This document shows positions 1,044-19,144 of a stretch of 25,850 nt of DNA, in pieces. Source of the stretch: an uncultured bacterium. Its GTDB lineage: Bacteria; Muiribacteriota; Ozemobacteria; Ozemobacterales; Ozemobacteraceae. The notes under the pieces were generated by a model. It was given only the letters and a program-made list of their open reading frames with translations, did not search any database and was not told where the DNA came from. Both the position numbers and the translations under genes were made by a program. The DNA lies in NCBI GenBank assembly GCA_964483805.1, contig CAZADH010000034.1, positions 1 through 25,850 of the forward strand, in the 5' to 3' direction. Position 1 is the first letter of the stretch; each line of letters starts with the position of its first letter.

Positions 1044-1243
1044 TAAAACAACGGTATGACGGTCAGCGCAAGCGACGAGCCGAAGTCGAAATCAGCCACT
1101 GGACCGGTTTCTTGTCAAAGGATGGGGGACACTGTACCGTCGGTGAGCCAATGAGAGACTTTTTCGTGTACCCCGCGTTTTGGCGGGCTTTCGGTGGCGA
1201 TCAGGTGGACGCACCCGCACCTGCAATGCGCGGGGCGGCCGAT

Positions 1244-1275
1244 GAAAAACCCCCGATGCACGAATGCATCGGGGG
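1244..1275 (-). terminator. Rho-independent terminator of the hppA-like gene
   Basis: A perfect 11-bp inverted repeat, cccccgatgca (1250-1260) / tgcatcggggg (1265-1275), has a 4-nt loop. On the minus-strand transcript it is followed by UUUUUC (complement of gaaaaa, 1244-1249). It lies 27 nt downstream of the hppA stop at 1302. Confidence 0.6.
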
Positions 1276-1301
1276 TCGACGAATACTGCTATGTCTGGGG
1301 C

Positions 1302-4300
1302 TTAGAACGGGTCGGCGTCAACCTTGGGACTGGCGGAACCCGAACCGGAACCGTTGGCCGGGGCTGCCGCACTGCCGCTACCGGCCGGTGTTGCGCTGCC
1401 TGTGCCGGATCCAGAGCCGGTCGGCGTCACGGCGCTGCCGGACCCTGCCGCTGCAGCGCTACCCGAGCCGGAACCGCCAGCAGCGGGGGGCGTCGTGGGG
1501 GCAACCGGAGCCGTGGCGCCCGAGGCCGAGGCACTGCCGGATCCGCTGCCGGTCGCAGTTGTCTGGTCGGAACCCGTTGCGGCTGGAGCGGCGGCGCTGC
1601 CGGAGCCCGCAGCGGATGCGCTTCCTGAACCGCTGCCCGCGGCCGCAGCACTGCCACTGCCGGCGGCGGCCGGACTGCCGGAACCGCTGCCTGCAGCAGG
1701 TTTGGGTGTATCGTCAAAGCCACCGAACCCGCCGTCATCGGCGGGTTTGCCGCTGGCTTTGCCGGAACCGCTGCCTGCAGCGGGTTTGGGCGTATCGTCG
1801 AAACCACCGAACCCACCGTCATCGGCGGGCTTGCCGCTGGCTTTACCGGAACCGCTGCCGGCAGCGGGTTTCGGGGTGTCATCGAAACCGCCGAAGCCAC
1901 CGTCACCGCCGGAAGTCGGCTTCACACCAGGCTTCGCCGAAGCATCGCCACTGGCCTTGCCGGAACCGCTGCCGGCGGCCGGCGGCTCGACGGTAGCCGA
2001 GCCGATTGCCTCGGTGCCACTGCCGGTGTCGCCGAGCAATGCTTCCTCGTCGTCGGGAATCAGACCCTGCTCGGGGGCGAGCAACGGATCGTCTTCTTCC
2101 ATGTTGTCGTAATACTCATCGCCACCGGTGCGCGCAGTACCGCTGGCAGCGCCGACGTCACCGGGCAGGAAGATGCCGGCCTGGCGACCGCTGGTGTCGT
2201 ACTTGTTCTTGAACTCGTCGCGCAGGCGGGTGTTGGCAGGGCTGAAGCCGAGCAAGCCCTGGATGCTGGGCGAGTAGGAAACGATCAGGCCGGCCACGAC
2301 GATCGAGACCAGGCTCATGACCTTGATGAGTGAGGTCAATGCCGGTCCGGATGCGTCTTTGAGCGAATTGCCGACGCTGCCCGACAGCACGACCGCTTTG
2401 TGACTATCGGACCCCTTACCGCCGCACTGGCCGCCTTCGATGTACTTCTTGGCGTTGTCCCAGGTGCCGCCGGTGTTGGTCAGGAAGCCGGCGAGAACGA
2501 AACCGGTGGCGAGTGCGCCTGCGAGCAGGCCCATAACGCCGTTGGCGCCGAGGAGGAGACCGACGAGGATGGGTGCTGCGAGAGCGGTGACAATCGGGAG
2601 GACCATCTCGTTCTGGACACCCGCGGTTACAGCGGTGATGCACTGGGCATGGTTGGCCTTGGCATTCGCATCGCCCTTGAGGAGCCCGGGGTTGTCGTGG
2701 AACTGGCGCTTGACCTCGGCAGCGAGCGCTTTCGCCGCGAGACCCACGGCTTTGAGCATCATCGATGCGAAGAGCGATGCCAGCATGGCACCCAACAACA
2801 GGCCACCCAACACCTGCGGGTTCAGCAGCGTGACGTCGAAGTAGCTCATGAAGTCGCCGACGACGGCCTTGTCGAGAGCCACGGCCTGGGTCGAGCTTGG
2901 GAACACGCACTTGTCGAAGCGGTCTCCGGTGGAATCGGCGTAGCGAATGAGTCCGGAGCGAATCGACTCGACGTAGGCCGCGAGCAGAGCGACGGCCGAG
3001 AGGGTGGCCGCAACGACGGCGTAACCGCGGCTCGACGCGGCGGTCGTGGCACCAAAAGCCAGGGCGTCGGTGCGTTTGCGCACGTCGGGGCCGGCCTGGG
3101 TCATTTCGGCACAGCGTGCTGCATTGTCGGCGATCGGGCCGTAGGCACCGGCCGTCAGGACCAACGACAACGGGGCCAGCATGCCGACTGCGGCCAGAGC
3201 GATGCCATAGAGGCCACGCGCAAAGGCGAAGTTGATCGGACCGGAGGCTGGATCATAGCCACCGGCGAACAGGAAGGCCAGAACCATACCGACGATCACC
3301 ACGATCAGCGTGGGGCCGACCGTGGAGCCCAAACCGATGGTCAGACCGGCGAGCAACACGGTATTGGGCCCGCTCGAAGCCTGCGTGGCAAGCTCCTGGG
3401 TGGGCGGGAACTCGGTCGAGGTGTAGTAATCGGTCGACCAGCCAATGACGATTCCGACCAGCAGGCCGACGCCGATCGATCCGCACAACTTGAAGTAATC
3501 GGGCATCATCGCATAGACGGCAAAGACGGCGATGGCCGCGAGCACTGCAGAAGAGATCAGGAGGCTGCGGTTGACGGTGCCGGCGAGGTCTTTCTGGGTC
3601 GCGTCTTCGGTGGCCCGAATCGACAGGACACCGAACAACGACGCGATGACGCCGGCGCCGGCAAGCACCAAAGGCAGGATGATGGCAGCAATCTGGAGGC
3701 TTTCGATGGAGGCCTTCTGGGCGGCGTCTTTGATTGCAGCGGTCTCAGGGCGGAACGCCGTGGCGCCGAGCGCGGCGGCAGCCAGGATCGCACCGAGATA
3801 CGACTCGTAGAGGTCGGTGCCGAGGGCCGACACGTCACTGACGTTGTTGCCCAGTTGAGCGGCGACCACGGCCGGATTCCGCGGATCGTCTTGCGGCGCG
3901 CCGGCTTCGTTCTTGGCAACCAGTTCGGCGCCCAGTTCGGTGGCCTTGGCAAACACGCCGCCGCCGGCACGGGCGAACAGGGCGTGAATACTGGCACCGA
4001 TCCCGAAGGTGAGCAGAATCGAGGTCAGGTCGACGTAGTCGCGAATGCCGAACCGGACCATGTAATTGCTATTGGGCCCGAATACGCCGGCATCGTTGGT
4101 CTGCGACATGGCCCAAGACAGAATCTTGAACCAGATCGAAATGTCGGCGAGCGCGAGACCCGCGGCGAGAAAGCCGATGACGGCAGCGCCGCGAACGGCC
4201 ATGTTCATGCCCGCCGCGAGCGATTGCTTGGCAGCCTCGGCGGTGCGCGCATTGGCATGGGCAGAAGCGATCAACCCCGCGTAGCCGGCGATCAACGAAA

Positions 4301-4589
4301 ACAGGCCGCCGAACAGAAACGCGATCGGGGTCCAGGCGCTCTGAGCCTTCAGTACATAGGCCAGGAAGGCAAAGAACAGGAAGCCGAAGAAGTAGCACAT
4401 ACCCACGGCGCGGTTCTGCTGCGAGAGGTACGCGACAGCACCGTCGTAGGTAGCCGTGGCGATGCTCTGGGCCTTGTCGTTGCCGGCCCCGGCCCGGATC
4501 ATCGCATCATAGAACCAGTAGGCAATGGCCAGGCCCAAGACGGCGCCAATAGGTGCCAACCAAAAAAGGGTTTCAGGCGATACATTCAC
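1302..4589 (-). CDS. hppA: Membrane-integral pyrophosphatase homolog (H+-translocating PPase / HppA family) with an atypical ~325-aa low-complexity C-terminal extension
   Basis: The 1095-aa ORF uses a GTG start, with GAGGAGG 12 nt upstream. M-PPase signatures are present: DDPRNPA, GPIADNA, DYYTS, GGTWDNAKKYIEGG, HKAVV...LKDASGP and about 16 hydrophobic helices. Canonical M-PPases end about 15 aa after the last TM, whereas here a ~325-aa G/S/A/T/P-rich tail follows. Several conserved acidic residues appear substituted (see findings). Confidence 0.85.
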   Translation of the reverse strand: MNVSPETLFWLAPIGAVLGLAIAYWFYDAMIRAGAGNDKAQSIATATYDGAVAYLSQQNRAVGMCYFFGFLFFAFLAYVLKAQSAWTPIAFLFGGLFSLIAGYAGLIASAHANARTAEAAKQSLAAGMNMAVRGAAVIGFLAAGLALADISIWFKILSWAMSQTNDAGVFGPNSNYMVRFGIRDYVDLTSILLTFGIGASIHALFARAGGGVFAKATELGAELVAKNEAGAPQDDPRNPAVVAAQLGNNVSDVSALGTDLYESYLGAILAAAALGATAFRPETAAIKDAAQKASIESLQIAAIILPLVLAGAGVIASLFGVLSIRATEDATQKDLAGTVNRSLLISSAVLAAIAVFAVYAMMPDYFKLCGSIGVGLLVGIVIGWSTDYYTSTEFPPTQELATQASSGPNTVLLAGLTIGLGSTVGPTLIVVIVGMVLAFLFAGGYDPASGPINFAFARGLYGIALAAVGMLAPLSLVLTAGAYGPIADNAARCAEMTQAGPDVRKRTDALAFGATTAASSRGYAVVAATLSAVALLAAYVESIRSGLIRYADSTGDRFDKCVFPSSTQAVALDKAVVGDFMSYFDVTLLNPQVLGGLLLGAMLASLFASMMLKAVGLAAKALAAEVKRQFHDNPGLLKGDANAKANHAQCITAVTAGVQNEMVLPIVTALAAPILVGLLLGANGVMGLLAGALATGFVLAGFLTNTGGTWDNAKKYIEGGQCGGKGSDSHKAVVLSGSVGNSLKDASGPALTSLIKVMSLVSIVVAGLIVSYSPSIQGLLGFSPANTRLRDEFKNKYDTSGRQAGIFLPGDVGAASGTARTGGDEYYDNMEEDDPLLAPEQGLIPDDEEALLGDTGSGTEAIGSATVEPPAAGSGSGKASGDASAKPGVKPTSGGDGGFGGFDDTPKPAAGSGSGKASGKPADDGGFGGFDDTPKPAAGSGSGKASGKPADDGGFGGFDDTPKPAAGSGSGSPAAAGSGSAAAAGSGSGSASAAGSGSAAAPAATGSDQTTATGSGSGSASASGATAPVAPTTPPAAGGSGSGSAAAAGSGSAVTPTGSGSGTGSATPAGSGSAAAPANGSGSGSASPKVDADPF
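1684..1935. repeat. Three tandem 84-bp (28-aa) direct repeats inside the hppA 3' region
   Basis: Unit ccgctgcctgcagc(a/g)ggtttggg(t/c)gtatcgtc(a/g)aa(g/a)ccaccgaacc... recurs at about 1684, 1768 and 1852. It encodes GGFGGFDDTPKPAAGSGSGKASGKPADD three times. The first two copies are near-identical. Confidence 0.8.
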
Positions 4590-4694
4590 GATGAACCGAG
4601 ACCTCCTCGCGCGCTAGAGATACCATCCGCACCGGATTCTGCACGAACGGCTGCGGAAACCGCTCGCTTTGTGCAACTACTCCGAGAACCTGAA

Positions 4695-4724
4695 AATATA
4701 GTGGTAATGCAAAGATACTGTCAA
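4695..4724 (-). promoter_or_regulatory. Sigma70-type promoter for hppA (-35 TTGACA, 18-nt spacer, -10 TATATT)
   Basis: On the minus strand, TTGACA is the complement of 4719-4724 and TATATT the complement of 4695-4700. The spacing is exactly 18 nt. It sits in the AT-richer divergent intergenic region 4590-4787 and predicts a 5'UTR of about 95 nt. Confidence 0.45.
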
Positions 4725-4787: not shown

Positions 4788-7097
4788 ATGGACAGAACAC
4801 AGACGACAAGACGGCAGCGTTTCGTTTCTTGGCTGGGCGTCGTCACGTGGGTACTGTTGGGCGTGGTGTCCGGATGGGCTCAAACCCCGGCGGTTCCGAC
4901 GACCATTGATGACGCAAGTGCAGCGGGTGAGGCTGCGGGTTCTCCGCGGGCCTTGTATCGACAGGCCCACGCCGATTTTACGGCCGGCCGAATCGATCAG
5001 GCCTGGACCACGGCCATCGGGGTGTTTCGCCAGGGACATCGGTCGGTCAACTTGTTGAACCTGTTGGCGGCGATCGAGTTGAAGGCTGGCCGTCAGGCGA
5101 TTGCCGGCTTGTGGCTGAAGAAGGCGTTGTGTTTCGATCCGGGCGACTCGACGGCGCGGCGTTTGCTGGCGCAGATGCCCCCGTCCCCGCGGCCGGTTCC
5201 CTTGCGGCCCAACCAGACACGCGAACACCTCGACGAGATCAGCCGGCAACTTCCGGAGTTGCTGTCGCGCCTGAACAATCCCCAGACCTTTGCGCGGCGG
5301 ATTCTCGAAGAGTTGCAGTTTGGTCGCTTCTATCACGCGTTGGCGCTGGCCGAAGAGTACGAGAAGCGGCATCCGGGGCCCGAAGCGCAGGGGTTATCGG
5401 CACTGGCGGCGATGTTTCTCGGGCAGAACCGCGAAGCGCTGGCCATGGCCGGCAATGCGCTGAAGACGGCGCCCGATCAGCCGATTGCAGCGACCGTGGT
5501 AGCCATGCTGACCGATACGAATCCGCTGTCGTCGACGTCGAGCAATGCGCGTTCGGCATACGATCGTGACCGATTCGGCGAAGCAATCGCGGCGGCCAAC
5601 CGACTCGTACAGATCGATGCGCGCAGTGCCGAAGGCAACCTGGTGCTGGCGCGAATCGCGCTCGATCGCCTCGACATGGCGACGGCAGACAAACAGTTGG
5701 CCGAAGCTCTGAAACGTGACCCGGACCACCCGTTGGCTCATTTGTACAACGTCGAGCTGGCGATGAACACCAACAATGCGTCGGCAGCCGCGCGCAGTCT
5801 CGATTTTGCGTGGCGTCGCGGTTACAACCTCCCGTCGGTCCGGTTGCGCGCCGGTCTTGTCGCGTTGGCAGGTGGCCGGGTGACCGAAGCCCGTCAGATC
5901 CTCGCTGATTGTCAGCAGATGATGCCGTTCGTTGACCGCGATGCCTGGCCGCTTTGCGTGCAACTTGGCATCAACGTCGATCCGGCCCACGTGAGAAACG
6001 TCCTGAAAACCTGGCGTGAGCGGTTGGGTACCACGGCTCTGTCGTGCTACTACGAGGCGCTCATCGAGCGCAACGCCAACAATATGGAGCGGGCTGTGGC
6101 GCTGATCAAGCAGGGCATGGCGGCGAACCCCGATCTCATCGCGCCGCTTCCTGCCGTGTCGTTAATCGCGAATCTCGCTGGTGATGCGGAGTTGGCCCGG
6201 GCCGTATTGGAACGGGTGGTGGCAGCCCGCCCCGACGATCAGGAGTTGCGTCGCCAGTTGTCGATGCTCACCACCAAGGTTTCGACCGAGGCGTCGATGG
6301 ACAAGCGTGACACCGGGCCGTTTACGGTCGAGCATCCGAGTGAGTTGTCGTCGGCGCTGCTCGACGCCGTTCTGGCGATGTTGAACCGGACCTACGGTGA
6401 TCTGACCCGTCTGTTCGGGATTTCACCCAAGCCGGTGCCGGTTCGCCTCGTCGTGACGCCGGGTGCCGGCGATCGCATTGCCTTGTTCGATCGGGCGTCG
6501 GGCAAACTGACGCTGTCGGTCATTCTCGGAGATGCCGACGGCATGGCCAAACTCGTGGCCGACATGTATCCCGAAGTGGCCAACAGCGAGCAGAAAGCAT
6601 TCGGTGAGCAGTTCGCCCGGCACACGCTGTTTCACGAGTTCAGTCATCTTCTGGTGGGCAAGGCGCTCGAAGGAGTCAAGCCCACCGGCATCCAGGCTAC
6701 CTGGTTGCATGAGGGCCTGGCCGAGGTCATTGGCGGTGAGTCCTCGGTGTTGTCGGTGCGCCTGAAACGCCTGCAGCAGGCGCGGCGCGACGGTAAATAC
6801 AAGATATTGGCACCGCCGGCGCTGAACGCGCTGTTGACGGCCACGAAGGCCTCCCCCGTCGAACTCGAGGGTGCGTATGCCCAGTCGTATCTGATGGTGT
6901 CGCACCTGCTCAAGAAATCGGGTGGATTGCTGGTGGGGCTGTCGTTGTTGATCGAGGCGATTCGCCAGCAAGAGACGGGCAAGTCGTTGAGTGAGACGTT
7001 GACGAACATCTACCAGGAAAACGCCGAGGTCTTTGCCCAGTCGTGGCAAGAGGCTGGCGAGCCGTGCATCGAAAAAGGACAACCGTTCACGTGGTGA
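4788..7097 (+). CDS. Secreted TPR-repeat protein with a C-terminal peptidase-MA-like (HExxH ... EGLAE) putative zinc metallopeptidase module
   Basis: The 769-aa protein has an N-terminal signal peptide (RRQRFVSWLGVVTWVLLGVVSGWAQT). Its middle portion is Ala/Leu-rich helical repeats (TPR-like). The C-terminal region carries HEFSHLLVGK...WLHEGLAEVIGG, matching the HExxH plus downstream EGxAE arrangement of Peptidase_MA_2-type domains. Confidence 0.6.
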   Translation: MDRTQTTRRQRFVSWLGVVTWVLLGVVSGWAQTPAVPTTIDDASAAGEAAGSPRALYRQAHADFTAGRIDQAWTTAIGVFRQGHRSVNLLNLLAAIELKAGRQAIAGLWLKKALCFDPGDSTARRLLAQMPPSPRPVPLRPNQTREHLDEISRQLPELLSRLNNPQTFARRILEELQFGRFYHALALAEEYEKRHPGPEAQGLSALAAMFLGQNREALAMAGNALKTAPDQPIAATVVAMLTDTNPLSSTSSNARSAYDRDRFGEAIAAANRLVQIDARSAEGNLVLARIALDRLDMATADKQLAEALKRDPDHPLAHLYNVELAMNTNNASAAARSLDFAWRRGYNLPSVRLRAGLVALAGGRVTEARQILADCQQMMPFVDRDAWPLCVQLGINVDPAHVRNVLKTWRERLGTTALSCYYEALIERNANNMERAVALIKQGMAANPDLIAPLPAVSLIANLAGDAELARAVLERVVAARPDDQELRRQLSMLTTKVSTEASMDKRDTGPFTVEHPSELSSALLDAVLAMLNRTYGDLTRLFGISPKPVPVRLVVTPGAGDRIALFDRASGKLTLSVILGDADGMAKLVADMYPEVANSEQKAFGEQFARHTLFHEFSHLLVGKALEGVKPTGIQATWLHEGLAEVIGGESSVLSVRLKRLQQARRDGKYKILAPPALNALLTATKASPVELEGAYAQSYLMVSHLLKKSGGLLVGLSLLIEAIRQQETGKSLSETLTNIYQENAEVFAQSWQEAGEPCIEKGQPFTW

Positions 7098-15700: not shown

Positions 15701-18700
15701 GTTCCTCTCATCGGCTTCGCGCTGCAACACCTGATGTTGTGCCATGTCGGCACTTGCGAGAGACCGCCACACCACGATTGCTGGTGTCGTTAACAGCAGG
15801 AATCCGGCGAGAAACAGCGCAAAGCGGAAAGTCGCAGTATGGTGTCTTGCTACTGGGGTCGTCGGTTGAGTTGTGAAGCCAGCGTCCCGCGCGTTGGCTC
15901 GCGGAGCGCCCGGTTCGGGTGCGCGGTGGGGAGAAGCCGGTTCGGCGTTACCGGGCATCGACCATCGGGTGGTCGTATTGCTGGTGTATGTCTCCTGTGA
16001 TGCTCTTGCCCCGGGTTCGGTAGTGCCTGCAATATCCGGCGCAACGGCCAGGGCCGCCATTGGTGCCGCGATGGTCGTGAGGTCGGCGGGGTCTACTCCC
16101 GCAAGATCGGCAACGGTCCGGCTGATCACGAGAGGCCACGACGGACACTGCTTGCTGGCCGCTTCCAAACGGGTGGCTTCCTTCACGGGTTCACCAACCA
16201 TCGTGAAGTCGAGTCGCGAGGTGGGGCTGCCGATGCCGCCGACCACGAGGGAGCCGGCCGCGATACCGATGCCGATCGCGTAGGGAAACTCCCGGCGGGC
16301 GGTGCGCGCGGCGTTGATGCGGGCCAGTTCGTGCAGCATCGCATGCCCCGCGCGGCAGGCGGCACGCGCTGTCTGCTCGAGCCCGGCATCCGGCCCGGAC
16401 GGTTCGAAAATGGCTTGAATGGCGTCGCCGATGAATTTGTCGACGCGACCGCCATGCGCCGAAATGATTGCATCCATGCGCGTGTAGTGCTGGTTCAACA
16501 ACGCGGTCATGACCGCGGGGGGATGGTGTTCGCAATGGGTGGTGAAGTCACGAATGTCTGAGACGAGGACGACGGCCTCTAGTCGATGGCCGGCCCCGAG
16601 ATGGGCCAGATCACGCGTCGAGGCGATGGCGTCCAGAGCTTTGCCCGAGACCAGCGCGGCTAGGCGCCGGCGGGTGCGCAGACCGGCGATCATTTCGGTG
16701 AAGGCGCACGTCAGTTGACCCAGTTCGTCGGGGCGGGCCAGATCGATCGATTGGTCGAGATCACCGACGGCGACGGCGTCGAGTGCCGCTTTGAGTTTAG
16801 CGATGGGCGTAACGATGCGGGTGCCCATCCAGAGTCCGAGCACGATCATGATGCCCAGGCTGACGACCAGAGACAGCCAGAGGTGACGTGCCATCTGGGC
16901 GAGATCCTGAGTGACCGGCGTCAATGGTGTTCCCATGGCGAGGATCATGTCGTTCATTTCGCGTGATGGCTGCGCGATCGAGACATACTGCCGGGCCTCG
17001 TCGACCACGAACACCGAGCCCTGCCGCACCGACGCGGTATTGGCGGTTGCATCGAGCAGGTGGCGGGTGAGGCGGGTTCCGCCGCTGACCGGTTCGAGTT
17101 GTCCGCGAACCCGGCGAAATGCGACAAAGTCGAGATCCGGCTGAGTGGCGCGGAGATGCCCGCTGGTGGTTTGCATGGCCGAGCGATCGAGATCGTTCTG
17201 CTGCCAAACCACGACCAGGCTGAACCTGGGGCGCCCGGCCACGGTGATGAAGTCGTGCAACTTGACGGTTTGGGAACGGCCGACCCGCATCAGTTCAGGC
17301 ATGCCGCAGGTGGCGAGGAGCGACGAAATTGCATCGGAACCGCAACTTTCCTCGTAGGCAGCGAGCAGGGCACGATCCTCTGTCGACAGCGGATCTGGAG
17401 GCAGACGCACGGTGGGATCGTGGTTGAGCATCATGTGTCGCAAGGTGCGGGTCATCGAACTGCGGTAGAAACGAACCATGGGTCGGACGTCGTCGAACTG
17501 GATCTCATTGGAACCGGTGGCGATGTACTGTCCGTTGCTGTCGTAGAGACAGATTGCCGCGACCGAGAGGGCCGGTGAAGCGGTGCGAAAATGCCAGGTG
17601 AGTCGATCGCACACCGACGCTCGTTGACGGTGCGGGCCAATCTGCAAAGCCGCCAACAACTCGGGATCGGCCAACGTGCGGCCAAATGCTGCCAGATAGT
17701 TTTCCTGCAGTTGATTGCGCCGGTGCTCGATTGCGCCGATCTCGGCCGTCAAGCGTGCTTGCATGTTGGCCAGCAACGTGGCTTCGTGTTCCTCCAGGGT
17801 GACGCGGGCCGCGATGAGTCCCAGGCCGATCGGGAGTGCGGAGGCGACGACGAACAAGCCGGCAAAACGCCATGACAGGCCGATGCGCATAGGTCTGCCG
17901 GCGACGGCATGGCGTGAAGCCAGGAGGAACAACAACAGCGCCGCAAGCACGTCGAGAGCGATGATCCCCGGTGCGAGTGGTTGTTGCGGTATGATGGGTA
18001 GCGCAATCAACGCGAGGTGACGTGCATCAGGAATGTACCACGTAAATACGCGATATTGACCGAGTCGCTTTCCCCAGGGAACCCCATCGCGTTCAATCTG
18101 CTCGAAGGGAAGACCATCCTTGCGGTTGGCCAGTTGCCGGCGAAAATCGGCCAGCCAGCGTCGGAACGTGGGCGAGCGGGCGAACGCGCTGGCCAGGACG
18201 TCGCAGCGCGGCCGTCCGACGAGTTGCACGAACCCGGTGAGCGGAAGTCCTGCGGGATTGCCTGGTCGGCCGGCCAAACCCGCGGTGCCGTGCGTGCTCG
18301 AACCAGACAGGCCGGCGGCAAGGCTGTCGGCCAGTTGCCGTCGGGCCAGACGCAAGCCGACGACCGTCGTCGTTGCGTTGTCTGGGGTCAGGAGAAAGTA
18401 GCCGCCGAGCGGACGTCCGGCGCGATCGCGCCAGACATCCCAGATCAACCAGTGAAAGCGGTTGGTGTAGACGATGCGTGTCGGCACGCCGCATTGCGTG
18501 CGGGCCAGCAGTTCGATGGGGATCTGGCCGCCGAAAAGGGAATCGATCAGTTTCTGTCCGCGCTGCCGTTCCGCACCGGTCGCCCGTCGCTCGGACTCGA
18601 GCACCAGATGGGCGAATGCGGTGGCCATGCTGCGTCGGCCCGTGCGGCTGCGCTCGGGTCCCAGGAGCAGTTCCGGGGCAACCGAGCCGGCAAGCCGATC

Positions 18701-19144
18701 TTGCGGCAGGCGGAACACCCACAACTCATGCGCCGGAAACGGGGGCTGCAGGACGGCCCGGGCCACGGCAGGGAGCAGGTCGGGACGTGCTTCGCCGGCG
18801 GTGTCGGTCGGTGTCCCCGTGGCCTGGTTGTGGTCCGCTGGCGGGTTGATGAACCCCAGCGGTTCACCCAGTTTCTGGTGGAGTTGGCCATGAAACCGCA
18901 CCAGTTGTCGGTGGAAACGCCAGGTCTCCCCCAGAGCGGCCAGCAACTGTCGGGCCTGTTCCTCCTGGGCAACGCCGGCCCGTCGATACGCCCGCTCGTT
19001 CTTGACCTTCCAGCCGATATTGATGACCAGTAACGGCACGACGGCCATCAACATGGGTAATATTACGGTAATGCTTCGTTTGGGGACCTGTGGGCGTCTG
19101 GTGGTTGGTGGTTGTGAACCCGCGGGAAAAACGCCTGGCACCAC
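12779..19144 (-). CDS. Giant (2121 aa) membrane receptor-type class III adenylate/guanylate cyclase made of two tandem modules. Each module is TM, periplasmic domain, 2 TM, periplasmic domain, TM, HAMP, cyclase homology domain.
   Basis: Two HAMP-like segments are present: PIAKLKAALDAVAVGDLDQSIDLARPDELGQLTCAFTEMIAGL and PIEALGEGMRAIDAARYDHRLPEERADELGDLCRTFNQMARGL. There are two cyclase homology domains. CHD1 (about 16060-16600) carries VVLVSDIRDFT ... GGRVDKFIGDAIQAIF ... GEPVKEATRLE. CHD2 (about 12817-13372) carries LTVLFLGVPGFA ... GGDVDKMIGDKILAVF ... GDTVNTAARVE. Eight predicted TM helices are arranged 1+2+1 per module, with a Pro/Ala/Thr-rich inter-module linker. The annotated GTG start lies 4 nt after the MMPL stop; an internal ATG about 90 nt downstream (MLMAVVPLLV) is an alternative. 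Confidence 0.8.
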   Translation of the reverse strand: MVPGVFPAGSQPPTTRRPQVPKRSITVILPMLMAVVPLLVINIGWKVKNERAYRRAGVAQEEQARQLLAALGETWRFHRQLVRFHGQLHQKLGEPLGFINPPADHNQATGTPTDTAGEARPDLLPAVARAVLQPPFPAHELWVFRLPQDRLAGSVAPELLLGPERSRTGRRSMATAFAHLVLESERRATGAERQRGQKLIDSLFGGQIPIELLARTQCGVPTRIVYTNRFHWLIWDVWRDRAGRPLGGYFLLTPDNATTTVVGLRLARRQLADSLAAGLSGSSTHGTAGLAGRPGNPAGLPLTGFVQLVGRPRCDVLASAFARSPTFRRWLADFRRQLANRKDGLPFEQIERDGVPWGKRLGQYRVFTWYIPDARHLALIALPIIPQQPLAPGIIALDVLAALLLFLLASRHAVAGRPMRIGLSWRFAGLFVVASALPIGLGLIAARVTLEEHEATLLANMQARLTAEIGAIEHRRNQLQENYLAAFGRTLADPELLAALQIGPHRQRASVCDRLTWHFRTASPALSVAAICLYDSNGQYIATGSNEIQFDDVRPMVRFYRSSMTRTLRHMMLNHDPTVRLPPDPLSTEDRALLAAYEESCGSDAISSLLATCGMPELMRVGRSQTVKLHDFITVAGRPRFSLVVVWQQNDLDRSAMQTTSGHLRATQPDLDFVAFRRVRGQLEPVSGGTRLTRHLLDATANTASVRQGSVFVVDEARQYVSIAQPSREMNDMILAMGTPLTPVTQDLAQMARHLWLSLVVSLGIMIVLGLWMGTRIVTPIAKLKAALDAVAVGDLDQSIDLARPDELGQLTCAFTEMIAGLRTRRRLAALVSGKALDAIASTRDLAHLGAGHRLEAVVLVSDIRDFTTHCEHHPPAVMTALLNQHYTRMDAIISAHGGRVDKFIGDAIQAIFEPSGPDAGLEQTARAACRAGHAMLHELARINAARTARREFPYAIGIGIAAGSLVVGGIGSPTSRLDFTMVGEPVKEATRLEAASKQCPSWPLVISRTVADLAGVDPADLTTIAAPMAALAVAPDIAGTTEPGARASQETYTSNTTTRWSMPGNAEPASPHRAPEPGAPRANARDAGFTTQPTTPVARHHTATFRFALFLAGFLLLTTPAIVVWRSLASADMAQHQVLQREADERNRAALRLVKAQDFAESLIDQRMREFAEEIARRVASSGPSLTREKLGLTGSETLLAGDRSNSAIRPVAVAVVRPRHDRWAAPAEVCMVGVASADARDLGRLVAYLADWSANVLPSWEVSETERSLQSFVNTQLGMNLPVRDLTARNRGHCRAGFLSGRPVWWFWQTLAITDPQAVTTTILSQAAQEGVTPRIAPILTQIPKVIGAAMIAIPREPITARRKAHMLMANYDDGDTALVLLSPDGNERYPSPQWGHGALARWLTTADFANPPSGWVIASDQVTLGNPYRVIAATRRAEPQTVFGLSPGTARALNLAALGGTLLAAVILWILTVYFDAGIAVSLSRQLWFGFLLAALLPLATTFALAATLIQEHRDTTVREVRTAMRNKIDDAHRRKTAYRAWLVENLFNLARSPKMLAVARRVHQQAMASGKNASAANDRLLATFDALAHHVYRRPIVKISFSSSVLVGPHGFRRSYRYAGMRGHVGNSDQLAESLSFIGGSRLLLLNPDLPHRDDARTLTETTKQELTTSAGLDIMRSIYGPDLFFHLLAGWHEPMRMVSSVGMTFIAPILSPSEQKPEYLFIWIFAVSMPDWHAILRVANAQSGTHPFFTSRLDYLGEPPTPRGSVALPTIGAVAQLTALINAPVSLRISEVNTRYLAESVLDPHGQQLVTVGISPEIPIDEASRRLAQTFNLLLSLALLATVLLAMSASRDLLAPIEALGEGMRAIDAARYDHRLPEERADELGDLCRTFNQMARGLEERELLGRMVSASARKAVLSDADADRSRTGESRDLTVLFLGVPGFAHICATADPVTLIANLNRQAGVICSEIERAGGDVDKMIGDKILAVFHHLNSSPAAATQGALDAGQRLLAAAARGDMPYPVALGIHAGPVLIGLLGAGDRQDHTVIGDTVNTAARVEALAEDLHQEPRLIMTSTACDLLGAAAPPSRPLAVTAVKGKRRAVQLFQPIGTVRGDA

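Follow-up and report, generated by a model that had tools for sequence, protein, structure and literature searches.

A long, motif-bearing C-terminal extension on a divergent membrane pyrophosphatase homolog of an uncultured Ozemobacteraceae bacterium

Introduction

Membrane pyrophosphatases (M-PPases) have been treated as compact, self-contained pumps of 16 transmembrane (TM) helices, and structural and mechanistic work gives nothing past TM16 a role. A question about this view is raised by a stretch of 25,850 nucleotides (nt) from an uncultured bacterium of the Ozemobacteraceae (GenBank assembly GCA_964483805.1, contig CAZADH010000034.1, positions 1 to 25,850), which is referred to at its full length as the window. 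Here, the open reading frame (ORF) of an M-PPase homolog continues for about 320 amino acids (aa) beyond the last helix, and it may be asked whether this tail is real, where else it occurs, what it may do, and what has become of the enzyme to which it is attached.

By sequence comparison, every sampled Riflebacteria species has such a tail on its M-PPase, and the window tail is the form that it takes in this organism. The explanation favoured here, to which we give about an even chance, is that the tail is a genuine, translated extension serving as a flexible, multivalent periplasmic tether or motif display, and that the core has diverged while the membrane scaffold and tail have been retained by selection.

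Reality and selection of the tail

The gene and the part of it that encodes the enzyme core lie as follows.

1302 to 4589, minus strand: M-PPase homolog with C-terminal tail, whole gene; a single 1095-aa ORF with a GTG start and a TAA stop
2253 to 4589, minus strand: 16-TM M-PPase core (about aa 1-779) with a degenerate hydrolytic centre, from alignment to TmPPase (4av3)

The Pfam family PF03030 (H_PPase) matches aa 17-765 over profile positions 1-645 of 645 (E 3e-176). Both this match and the single ORF agree with an earlier sequence-only reading of the same DNA, which had described an M-PPase homolog running on beyond TM16 and had correctly placed the start of the extension at about window position 2280 (aa ~770).

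An independent assembly of a sibling strain (L002; Logan SRR32844787), 96% identical to the window in nucleotides, contains an ortholog of the same 1095-aa length, in the same frame and with the same repeat copies. By the Nei-Gojobori method, the two strains differ by 55 synonymous and 6 non-synonymous changes in the core (ratio of non-synonymous to synonymous divergence, dN/dS, 0.037) and by 60 and 6, respectively, in the tail (dN/dS 0.030), with a whole-gene value of 0.034. These counts, which lie far outside chance, indicate that this is the frame in which the tail is translated and that purifying selection acts on it no less strongly than on the core. The synonymous divergence itself was three times higher in the tail (1302-2270, dS 0.28) than in the core (2271-4589, dS 0.096) at the same dN/dS; this could stem from a relaxed constraint on codons or mRNA, or from mutation or gene conversion associated with the repeats.

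Misassembly, a frameshift or stop just after TM16 and the joining of a separate downstream gene by sequencing error had been named in the sequence-only reading as grounds on which the tail could be dismissed. Such an artefact could be favoured by the long chance ORFs of high-GC genomes (GC content of the window, 62%), and several ORFs in other frames do overlap within 1302-2280. However, the same 1095-aa ORF is present in the sibling strain, with differences concentrated at third codon positions, the tail is fused in frame in 30 other genomes and in more than 15 database proteins, and a terminator directly follows its stop codon. An artefactual origin of the tail is thus effectively refuted.

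Topology and layout of the tail

Solved M-PPases have a cytoplasmic hydrolytic centre, with a funnel, a gate and an exit channel running toward the periplasm or lumen (PMC5150537, PMC6882861). Residues are numbered here by the Ballesteros-Weinstein scheme for M-PPases (PMC6882861, Table 3). The alignment of the window protein to TmPPase runs through TM16, in which D16.31-D16.39 stand at the cytoplasmic end and K16.50 (window K756) in mid-membrane. Because the maximum 19-residue Kyte-Doolittle mean past aa 780 is only 0.55, no further membrane pass is expected. The tail would therefore exit TM16 on the periplasmic side and never re-enter the membrane, in keeping with the extracytoplasmic location proposed in the sequence-only reading. 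Two other possibilities were rejected, namely a 17th TM helix, for which no hydrophobic segment exists past aa 780, and a C-terminal sorting signal (LPXTG, PEP-CTERM, GlyGly-CTERM or similar), which would combine a signature motif with a TM helix and a basic cluster at the very C-terminus; the window protein has no such hydrophobic segment and ends 8 residues after its last spacer.

In an AlphaFold2 (AF2) model built with 39 aligned homologs, the predicted local distance difference test score (pLDDT) is below 50 for aa 812-1095 (25-35), and no folded domain appears; a Pfam search on three tails matched no family at E<=1. The low-complexity and disordered character proposed earlier is supported, with disorder predicted for about 284 aa rather than for the whole of the ~325 aa first suggested; aa 785-800 are predicted to form a helix. 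The parts of the tail are given below.

2157 to 2276, minus strand: module A, a juxtamembrane segment beginning YSPSIQGLLGFSPANTRLRDEFKNKYD (aa 772-811), with a predicted amphipathic helix at 785-800 (AF2, pLDDT ~77)
2028 to 2120, minus strand: module B, the acidic motif DEYYDNMEEDDPLLAPEQGLIPDDEEALLGD (aa 824-854), aligning with the conserved (E/D)DPL(L/M)GTEDIILPxDE of Riflebacteria M-PPases
1902 to 1982, minus strand: partial upstream repeat copy PAAGSGSGKASGDASAKPGVKPTSGGD (aa 870-896), which has AAGSGSGKASG in common with the full units
1818 to 1901, minus strand: repeat 1 (R1), GGFGGFDDTPKPAAGSGSGKASGKPADD (aa 897-924)
1734 to 1817, minus strand: repeat 2 (R2), 28 aa identical to repeat 1 (aa 925-952)
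1677 to 1733, minus strand: repeat 3 (R3), truncated, its first 19 aa identical (aa 953-971)
1329 to 1676, minus strand: distal Gly/Ser/Ala/Thr/Pro-rich spacer (aa 972-1087, ~116 aa), from composition; pLDDT 25-35
1305 to 1328, minus strand: C-terminal end PKVDADPF-COOH, with the terminal Phe kept; it departs from the family end GGF(D/E/G)x(F/L/M)-COOH (30 loci)

The tail has a net charge of -17 and three GGFGGFDD units, with pLDDT values below 50 from aa 812 onward. The acidic stretch reported earlier, DEYYDNMEEDDPLLAPEQGLIPDDEE, is present at aa 824-849 (window 2028-2120). The three perfect 28-aa repeats of the sequence-only reading reduce to two (R1 and R2), the third sharing 19 aa only, with a partial copy (beginning PAAGSGSGKASG) upstream at aa 870-896; the Gly/Ser-, Ala-, Thr- and Pro-rich sequence that follows them exists, with ~116 aa instead of the ~150 estimated.

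The history of the repeats differs from the recent expansion that had been proposed on the premise of near-identical DNA. Tandem Repeats Finder reported 2.8 copies with 89% matches, and pairwise comparison of the copies showed mismatches in 9 of 84 nt (R1/R2), 12 of 57 (R1/R3) and 5 of 57 (R2/R3). Every one of these differences is a synonymous third-position change (13 variable codon columns). Because the divergence of 9-21% is entirely synonymous, the copies are old and have been kept identical in protein by selection. A HMMER search with the repeat region against 1.84 billion representative proteins recovered only the window protein itself and two spurious matches (an EGF-repeat protein and a junk repeat); on this search, the 28-aa unit is lineage-specific. 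RTX Ca2+-binding repeats, which are tandem nonapeptides of the form GGxGxDxUx, were also considered and rejected, as GGFGGFDDT has F instead of D at position 6, the units lie 28 aa apart, and no Pfam match was found.

Tailed M-PPases across Riflebacteria

The closest database relatives of the window protein are ten proteins of 943-1240 aa, 43-48% identical to it and all with long C-terminal extensions, whereas the next matches (~730-770 aa) have none. By using the juxtamembrane module after TM16 as the query against one genome per species of the Genome Taxonomy Database (GTDB), 30 species or loci were identified, almost all of them assigned by their labels to Candidatus Riflebacteria, Rifleibacteriota or Ozemobacteraceae. 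In all 30 loci, the M-PPase ORF continues in frame for 160-400 aa with its parts in the same order: LTVSYSPxIQxxxGFNPTE comes first and is followed by a stretch of basic and acidic residues, by (E/D)DPL(M/L)GTEDIILPxED, by at least two units that contain GGFxGGFD-type motifs and are parted by Pro/Ala/Lys/Glu/Thr spacers, and by a C-terminal motif. Module A (YSPxIQxxxG[FL]xP) is conserved in all tailed relatives. GGF(D/E) motifs, to which most Phe of the acidic chain belong, are repeated from 3 to ~25 times in the tails of the family, with Pro/Ala/Lys/Glu or Gly/Ser spacers between them, and 28 of the 30 species end in GGF(D/E/G/S)x(F/L/M)-COOH. Position-specific counts over 37 tails gave G-G-F-D as the consensus around the distal Phe; Trp and Cys are nearly absent from these tails, and their net charge lies between -9 and -47 in all but one (P0008, +4). 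For nine pairs of related species, dN/dS was 0.05-0.17 in the tail and 0.012-0.096 in the core; purifying selection thus maintains the tail in the wider phylum as well as in the window lineage.

By alignment, the window protein has three of the four features of the Riflebacteria tailed M-PPase subgroup as defined in this analysis. After TM16 it carries YSPxIQxxxG[FL]xP and (E/D)DPL..E..I.P, with YSPSIQGLLGFSP and EDDPLLAPEQGLIPDDEE aligning with all relatives, and several GGF(D/E) motifs stand in its tail, a chain that is acidic and predicted to be disordered. The C-terminal GGF(D/E/G/S)x(F/L/M)-COOH is missing: the protein ends KVDADPF, with only the terminal Phe in common, and the C-terminus of Candidatus Ozemobacter sibiricus deviates likewise (GGGGAFDE). 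Compared with the tailed enzymes of other Riflebacteria and Ozemobacteraceae (L003-L032, P0002-P0011), the window protein has the layout and order of the tail and the genomic neighbourhood in common. On the other hand, their spacers are rich in Pro/Ala/Lys/Glu and their tails end GGFxx(F/L/M), whereas the window tail has Gly/Ser/Ala spacers and ends DADPF; and their cores are canonical, whereas that of the window is degenerate and 50-53% identical to the main group.

The sequence-only reading knew of no precedent for such a tail. C-terminal M-PPase extensions, including an OmpA-like one, are in fact covered in a 2024 review (PMC11210485), and the present tail type occurs phylum-wide in Riflebacteria; in the literature searched on the Riflebacteria PPase and on C-terminal extensions, no description of this type was found, and the OmpA-like case is the sole precedent. 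The variation in repeat number between strains that had been suggested was absent between the window and its sibling strain, which have the same copies, and was found in other Riflebacteria. Among proteins at least 90% identical, one cluster (P0007/P0122/P0123/P0124) has lengths of 1098, 1146, 1200 and 1219 aa and another (P0011/P0125/P0126) of 1070, 1094 and 1122 aa. The differences in both correspond to the gain or loss of whole GGFDSGFGGGFDSFD or AEEAPKAEE units, a copy-number polymorphism in close relatives. In addition, Riflebacteria-type tailed PPases were present on three contigs labelled Erysipelotrichia, Candidatus Methylomirabilis and Candidatus Avigastranaerophilus (L019, L021 and L023, respectively), which are probably mis-binned; transfers are less likely.

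The phylum-wide data also bear on whether the tail might be a low-complexity extension that drifts neutrally and is merely tolerated. Its extreme composition, the lack of any Pfam match, the absence of a homolog of the repeat unit among the 1.84 billion representative proteins, and the wide variation of tail length and spacer composition across species would fit such a view. Nevertheless, dN/dS is 0.03 in the window tail and 0.05-0.17 in the nine other species pairs, the repeats have the same protein sequence although their DNA has diverged synonymously by 9-21%, and modules A and B, GGF(D/E) and the C-terminal motif are conserved across the phylum. A functionless tail is very improbable in our assessment.

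The enzyme core and its catalytic pocket

The core of the window protein belongs to the M-PPase superfamily by its full-length PF03030 match and its 16-TM fold. It was modelled with a pLDDT of ~75-90, and the model has TM-scores (normalised to the target) of 0.86-0.93 to TmPPase, VrPPase and PaPPase (from Thermotoga, Vigna and Pyrobaculum, respectively) and of 0.87-0.89 to TmPPase alone. The Na+-PPase signature comprises E 6.53, S 6.54, A 12.46, D/N 16.46 and K 16.50. The window protein has E262, S263, A518 and K756, and T752 at position 16.46, where 80 of 80 relatives have N. Only one of the 13 NCBIfam Na+-PPase equivalog cut-offs was passed (NF001960, 600.9 bits vs a cut-off of 546), and 12 were failed. 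By homology (E6.53, A12.46 and the nearest relatives), the protein would fall within the K+-dependent Na+-PPase lineage, and the earlier label of H+-PPase is not supported. With the K+-dependent Na+-PPases (TmPPase, PDB 4AV3/5LZQ; Bacteroidota), it has in common the 16-TM core, E6.53/A12.46, the lysines that bind pyrophosphate (PPi) and most of the ion gate. However, canonical Na+-PPases end ~20 residues past K16.50, whereas the window protein goes on for ~320 aa, and it has exchanged 7 of the 12 acidic residues of the hydrolytic centre as well as several residues of the coupling machinery.

The divergence of the core is considerable. It is 50-53% identical to other Riflebacteria cores, 44% to those of divergent gut lineages (L023/L031) and 48-49% to outgroups, while main-group Riflebacteria cores are 76-88% identical among themselves and 64-69% to outgroups. 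No relative of the divergent window form above 45% identity was found in a metagenome scan (JGI), nor were closer relatives found in the protein database or the representative library; the form is known from the window and its sibling strain only. The low identity to both Riflebacteria and outgroups, combined with the present dN/dS of 0.037, implies a burst of change followed by renewed conservation.

A degenerate catalytic pocket, which was absent from the sequence-only reading, was found in the follow-up analysis. Of the 330 columns with an invariance of at least 97% in an alignment of 143 relatives, 92 are altered in the window protein. The hydrolytic centre is lined by 12 acidic residues: D5.61, D5.65, E5.76, D5.77, D6.35, D6.39, D6.43, D11.57, D15.61, D16.31, D16.35 and D16.39 (PMC6882861). 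Measured against this set, the window protein falls short of a competent hydrolytic centre: seven of the 12 are replaced, five of them by uncharged residues (Q/A/N/G/N). The coupling funnel (D11.50, K12.50 and the TM12 N, Tm N492) is altered as well, to G481, R521 and A514. All of the changed pocket and coupling positions listed below are invariant in 80 of 80 diverse metagenomic M-PPases, which are 34-45% identical to the query.

D5.61: E218 (conservative D-to-E)
D5.65: E222 (conservative D-to-E)
E5.76: Q233
D6.35: A244
D6.39: N248
D11.50: G481
Tm D488 equivalent: deleted
Tm N492 (TM12 N): A514
K12.50: R521
D16.31: G737
D16.35: N741
N16.46: T752

Other parts of the machinery are kept. The PPi-binding lysines K5.58, K15.64 and K16.38 are present as K215, K714 and K744, and the nucleophile-activating pair D6.43/D16.39 as D252/D745; D5.77, D11.57 and D15.61 are also retained, together with the gate residues D6.50, E6.53, S6.54 and K16.50. 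These residues, two replacements that are merely D-to-E, the core dN/dS of 0.037 and the passed NF001960 cut-off would be expected of a working Na+-PPase that tolerates its substitutions with a remodelled metal cage. Such a reading, which competes only with the proposal of a degenerate enzyme, is possible but doubtful in view of the five carboxylates turned into Q/A/N/G/N, the changes D11.50G, K12.50R and N492A and the missing D488 equivalent, all at 80/80 invariant positions, the 92 of 330 near-invariant columns that differ, and the 12 missed NCBIfam cut-offs. Thus, judging from its residues, the window protein has probably lost PPi hydrolysis or performs it in a strongly altered form. No M-PPase pseudoenzyme was described in the literature searched.

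Possible roles of the tail

TonB and TolA are inner-membrane proteins linked to the ion-motive force, with long periplasmic spacers rich in Pro/Lys/Glu/Ala that can reach the outer membrane. An F-x-x-hydrophobic-COOH end is a type of feature bound by C-terminus-binding domains. Disordered chains with sparse aromatic motifs are also used for multivalent, low-affinity binding by the FG (Phe-Gly) nucleoporins, by endocytic adaptor tails with DPF/FxDxF motifs and by colicin translocation domains. These systems offer analogies for the Riflebacteria tails. Many of the tails are similar in composition to TonB/TolA-type spacers and lipoprotein linkers (KPADKPAD, AEEAPKAEE), although TonB and TolA have folded terminal binding domains and an N-terminal anchor, whereas the Riflebacteria tails have a short terminal motif only and no sequence homology to them. 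A database search with a GGFD-rich tail alone was uninformative, as it returned mainly low-complexity proteins rich in Pro/Ala/Glu; its four weak matches (Akkermansia membrane proteins and the linker of a LysM lipoprotein) have nothing but the AEEAPKAEE spacer in common with the tail. Likewise, the window tail resembles the nucleoporin, adaptor and colicin regions as a Gly/Ser-rich disordered chain with sparse aromatic motifs; it differs in its probable periplasmic location, in its motif of GGF with an acidic residue and in the lack of homology.

The one precedent within the enzyme family is the OmpA-like domain at the C-terminus of the 810-aa M-PPase of Paucibacter sp. KCTC 42545 (PMC11210485). 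This extension also follows TM16, hence is periplasmic, and its role is likewise without assignment (PMC11210485). However, it is a folded domain of ~110 residues, whereas the window has a disordered, motif-bearing tail of ~280 aa without a Pfam match. An OmpA-like extension was accordingly rejected for the window tail, with no Pfam domain at E<=1 and no folded domain in the AF2 model.

In the favoured explanation, the tail would be a flexible chain that presents short linear motifs multivalently on the exit side of an inner-membrane protein, and would tether this protein to, or recruit, a partner that is periplasmic, associated with the cell wall or peptidoglycan, or located in the outer membrane. 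The spacers would give reach (the shortest tails, ~160 aa, are already long enough to span the periplasm), and the GGF(D/E) and C-terminal motifs would give binding. In the window lineage, selection may now retain the membrane scaffold and the tail. The conservation of both while the catalytic pocket decays suggests a tail-dependent role that is selectable on its own.

Several observations weigh against this explanation. No partner was found. In ~540 kb of Riflebacteria loci, neither GGF(D/E) repeats nor the C-terminal motif occurred in any ORF other than the PPases, and the conserved neighbours look like housekeeping genes. The idea of a tether draws on composition, length and analogy; the periplasmic location derives from homology, and an outer membrane in Riflebacteria is assumed. 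The window tail itself departs from the family in its Gly/Ser-rich spacers, its only three double-Phe units and its DADPF end. As for the core, the retained lysines, nucleophile pair, D5.77, D11.57, D15.61 and most ion-gate residues make residual or altered catalysis possible, and a second, canonical M-PPase may exist elsewhere in this genome.

Other functions may be considered on the basis of the charge, the Phe residues and the position of the tail. As a polyanion, it might bind cations, buffering or collecting Ca2+, Mg2+, Na+ or H+ at the periplasmic or lumenal face, for example near the exit channel or in an acidocalcisome-like compartment. The tail leaves the membrane next to where ions exit the pump, and the net charge of all but one of the 37 tails is in agreement with such a role; the exception, P0008, is net positive, and cation binding leaves unexplained the conserved Phe of GGF(D/E), the hydrophobic C-terminal residue and the neutral or zwitterionic spacers, nor does the motif fit the RTX nonapeptide GGxGxDxUx. 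This function is unlikely. The FG-like domain put forward in the sequence-only reading would instead be cohesive, with Phe-Gly motifs that self-associate and thereby cluster pumps or form a periplasmic condensate or mesh. Phe is indeed almost the sole hydrophobic residue of the distal tail, always flanked by Gly and occurring 3 to ~25 times in a disordered chain. Yet cohesion should be counteracted by the strong negative charge and by the acidic residue that follows most Phe, the sequence is unrelated to that of nucleoporins, and the window tail has only six such Phe, which makes cohesion quite unlikely.

The tail could also act on its own enzyme, with module B or the C-terminal motif folding back on the periplasmic face or exit channel and modulating transport. 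In PMC6530997 and related papers, ligands that bind near the exit channel are described as affecting M-PPase catalysis allosterically, and modules A and B are both the best conserved parts of the tail and the nearest to the core. On the other hand, the AF2 model shows no confident docking of tail segments beyond aa 812, and the other 160-400 residues with their repeated motifs would be superfluous for a plug. We therefore hold autoregulation to be improbable.

A bolder form of the tether explanation is also conceivable, in which the Riflebacteria M-PPase would be the inner-membrane anchor of an undescribed envelope system that functions like TonB/TolA, its tail crossing the periplasm and connecting an ion-motive or PPi-driven protein with a periplasmic or outer-membrane partner. 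In the window lineage, this role would have become the main one, and the protein would be a pseudo-pyrophosphatase kept only as a scaffold, or as a passive ion path or sensor. This is speculative, and we attach only a small probability to it.

Genomic neighbourhood and expression signals

Further features flank the PPase gene.

4602 to 4608, minus strand: Shine-Dalgarno sequence GAGGAGG, 5' of the GTG start, read from the sequence
4695 to 4724, minus strand: promoter-like site TTGACA-18-TATATT, 11 of 12 matches in a consensus scan; a match only, no proof of function
1243 to 1277, minus strand: intrinsic terminator, a 13-bp GC-rich perfect stem followed by UUUUU, beginning 27 nt past the stop codon

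The folding energy of the terminator region (RNA fold, 80 nt) is -28.9 kcal/mol (z -2.9). With a ribosome-binding site, promoter-like site and terminator bracketing the whole ORF, the PPase gene looks like a self-contained transcription unit.

Other Riflebacteria have gap-pgk-tpi and a HAMP/cyclase gene at a distance of no more than ~10 kb from the tailed PPase, and the same genes are found here in a rearranged order. The window GAPDH is 84% identical to that of Candidatus Ozemobacter sibiricus, and PGK and TIM reach 70-75% identity with their counterparts in several Riflebacteria. The gene content thus also assigns the window to a relative of the Riflebacteria/Ozemobacteraceae. The window PPase would most simply be the positional ortholog of the tailed Riflebacteria enzyme. 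Judged from their sequences, the conserved neighbours (aldo-keto reductase-like, aroA-like, cmk-rpsA-like and cyclase genes) are of housekeeping type, with no obvious partner among them.

Other genes in the window include the following.

4788 to 7097, plus strand: 769-aa TPR-repeat protein, divergent from the PPase, with a weak Peptidase_MA_2 match below the Pfam cut-off
8575 to 11388, plus strand: 937-aa ORF with the major vault protein (MVP) domains MVP_shoulder (E 1.9e-26) and Vault_3 (E 3e-8), eukaryote-type
11456 to 12490, plus strand: PD-(D/E)XK nuclease-family transposase (PDDEXK_2, E 2.8e-45)
12779 to 19144, minus strand: giant 2121-aa protein carrying HAMP and adenylate/guanylate cyclase domains, two of each

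Cyclase homologs of ~750 aa lie directly upstream of the tailed PPase in at least 8 other Riflebacteria loci, which indicates a conserved cyclase-PPase linkage. In the window, the transposase and the MVP-like gene are situated between the cyclase and the PPase. Other Riflebacteria have gap-pgk-tpi downstream, not upstream, of the PPase, and the transposase may be the trace of an insertion or rearrangement by which the window differs from them. No counterpart of the MVP-like protein was found in other Riflebacteria loci by tblastn. The TPR protein is 99% identical in the sibling strain and has no homolog beside the PPase in other Riflebacteria loci.

Two classes of GAPDH are encoded beside pgk-tpi in these loci, one 75-84% identical to that of the window (L014, L013, L009, L018) and the other 52-55% (L008, L015, L007, L029, L026, L031, L003, L005). 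The PPase cores of L013 (gap at 17462-18463) and L015 (gap at 17623-18621) are 97% identical and yet accompany different GAPDH classes, suggesting that gap was replaced in situ by a different type.

Implications

A selected tail of 160-400 residues with short motifs, present throughout a phylum, implies that, on the membrane side away from catalysis, there is a partner or a function that has escaped consideration. The window protein may be regarded as a natural experiment, in which pocket residues have been lost while purifying selection remains strong, pointing to a function separable from PPi hydrolysis. If a partner were found, it would reveal a novel type of connection within the envelope of an uncultured phylum and would provide a handle on the regulation of M-PPases from their exit side.

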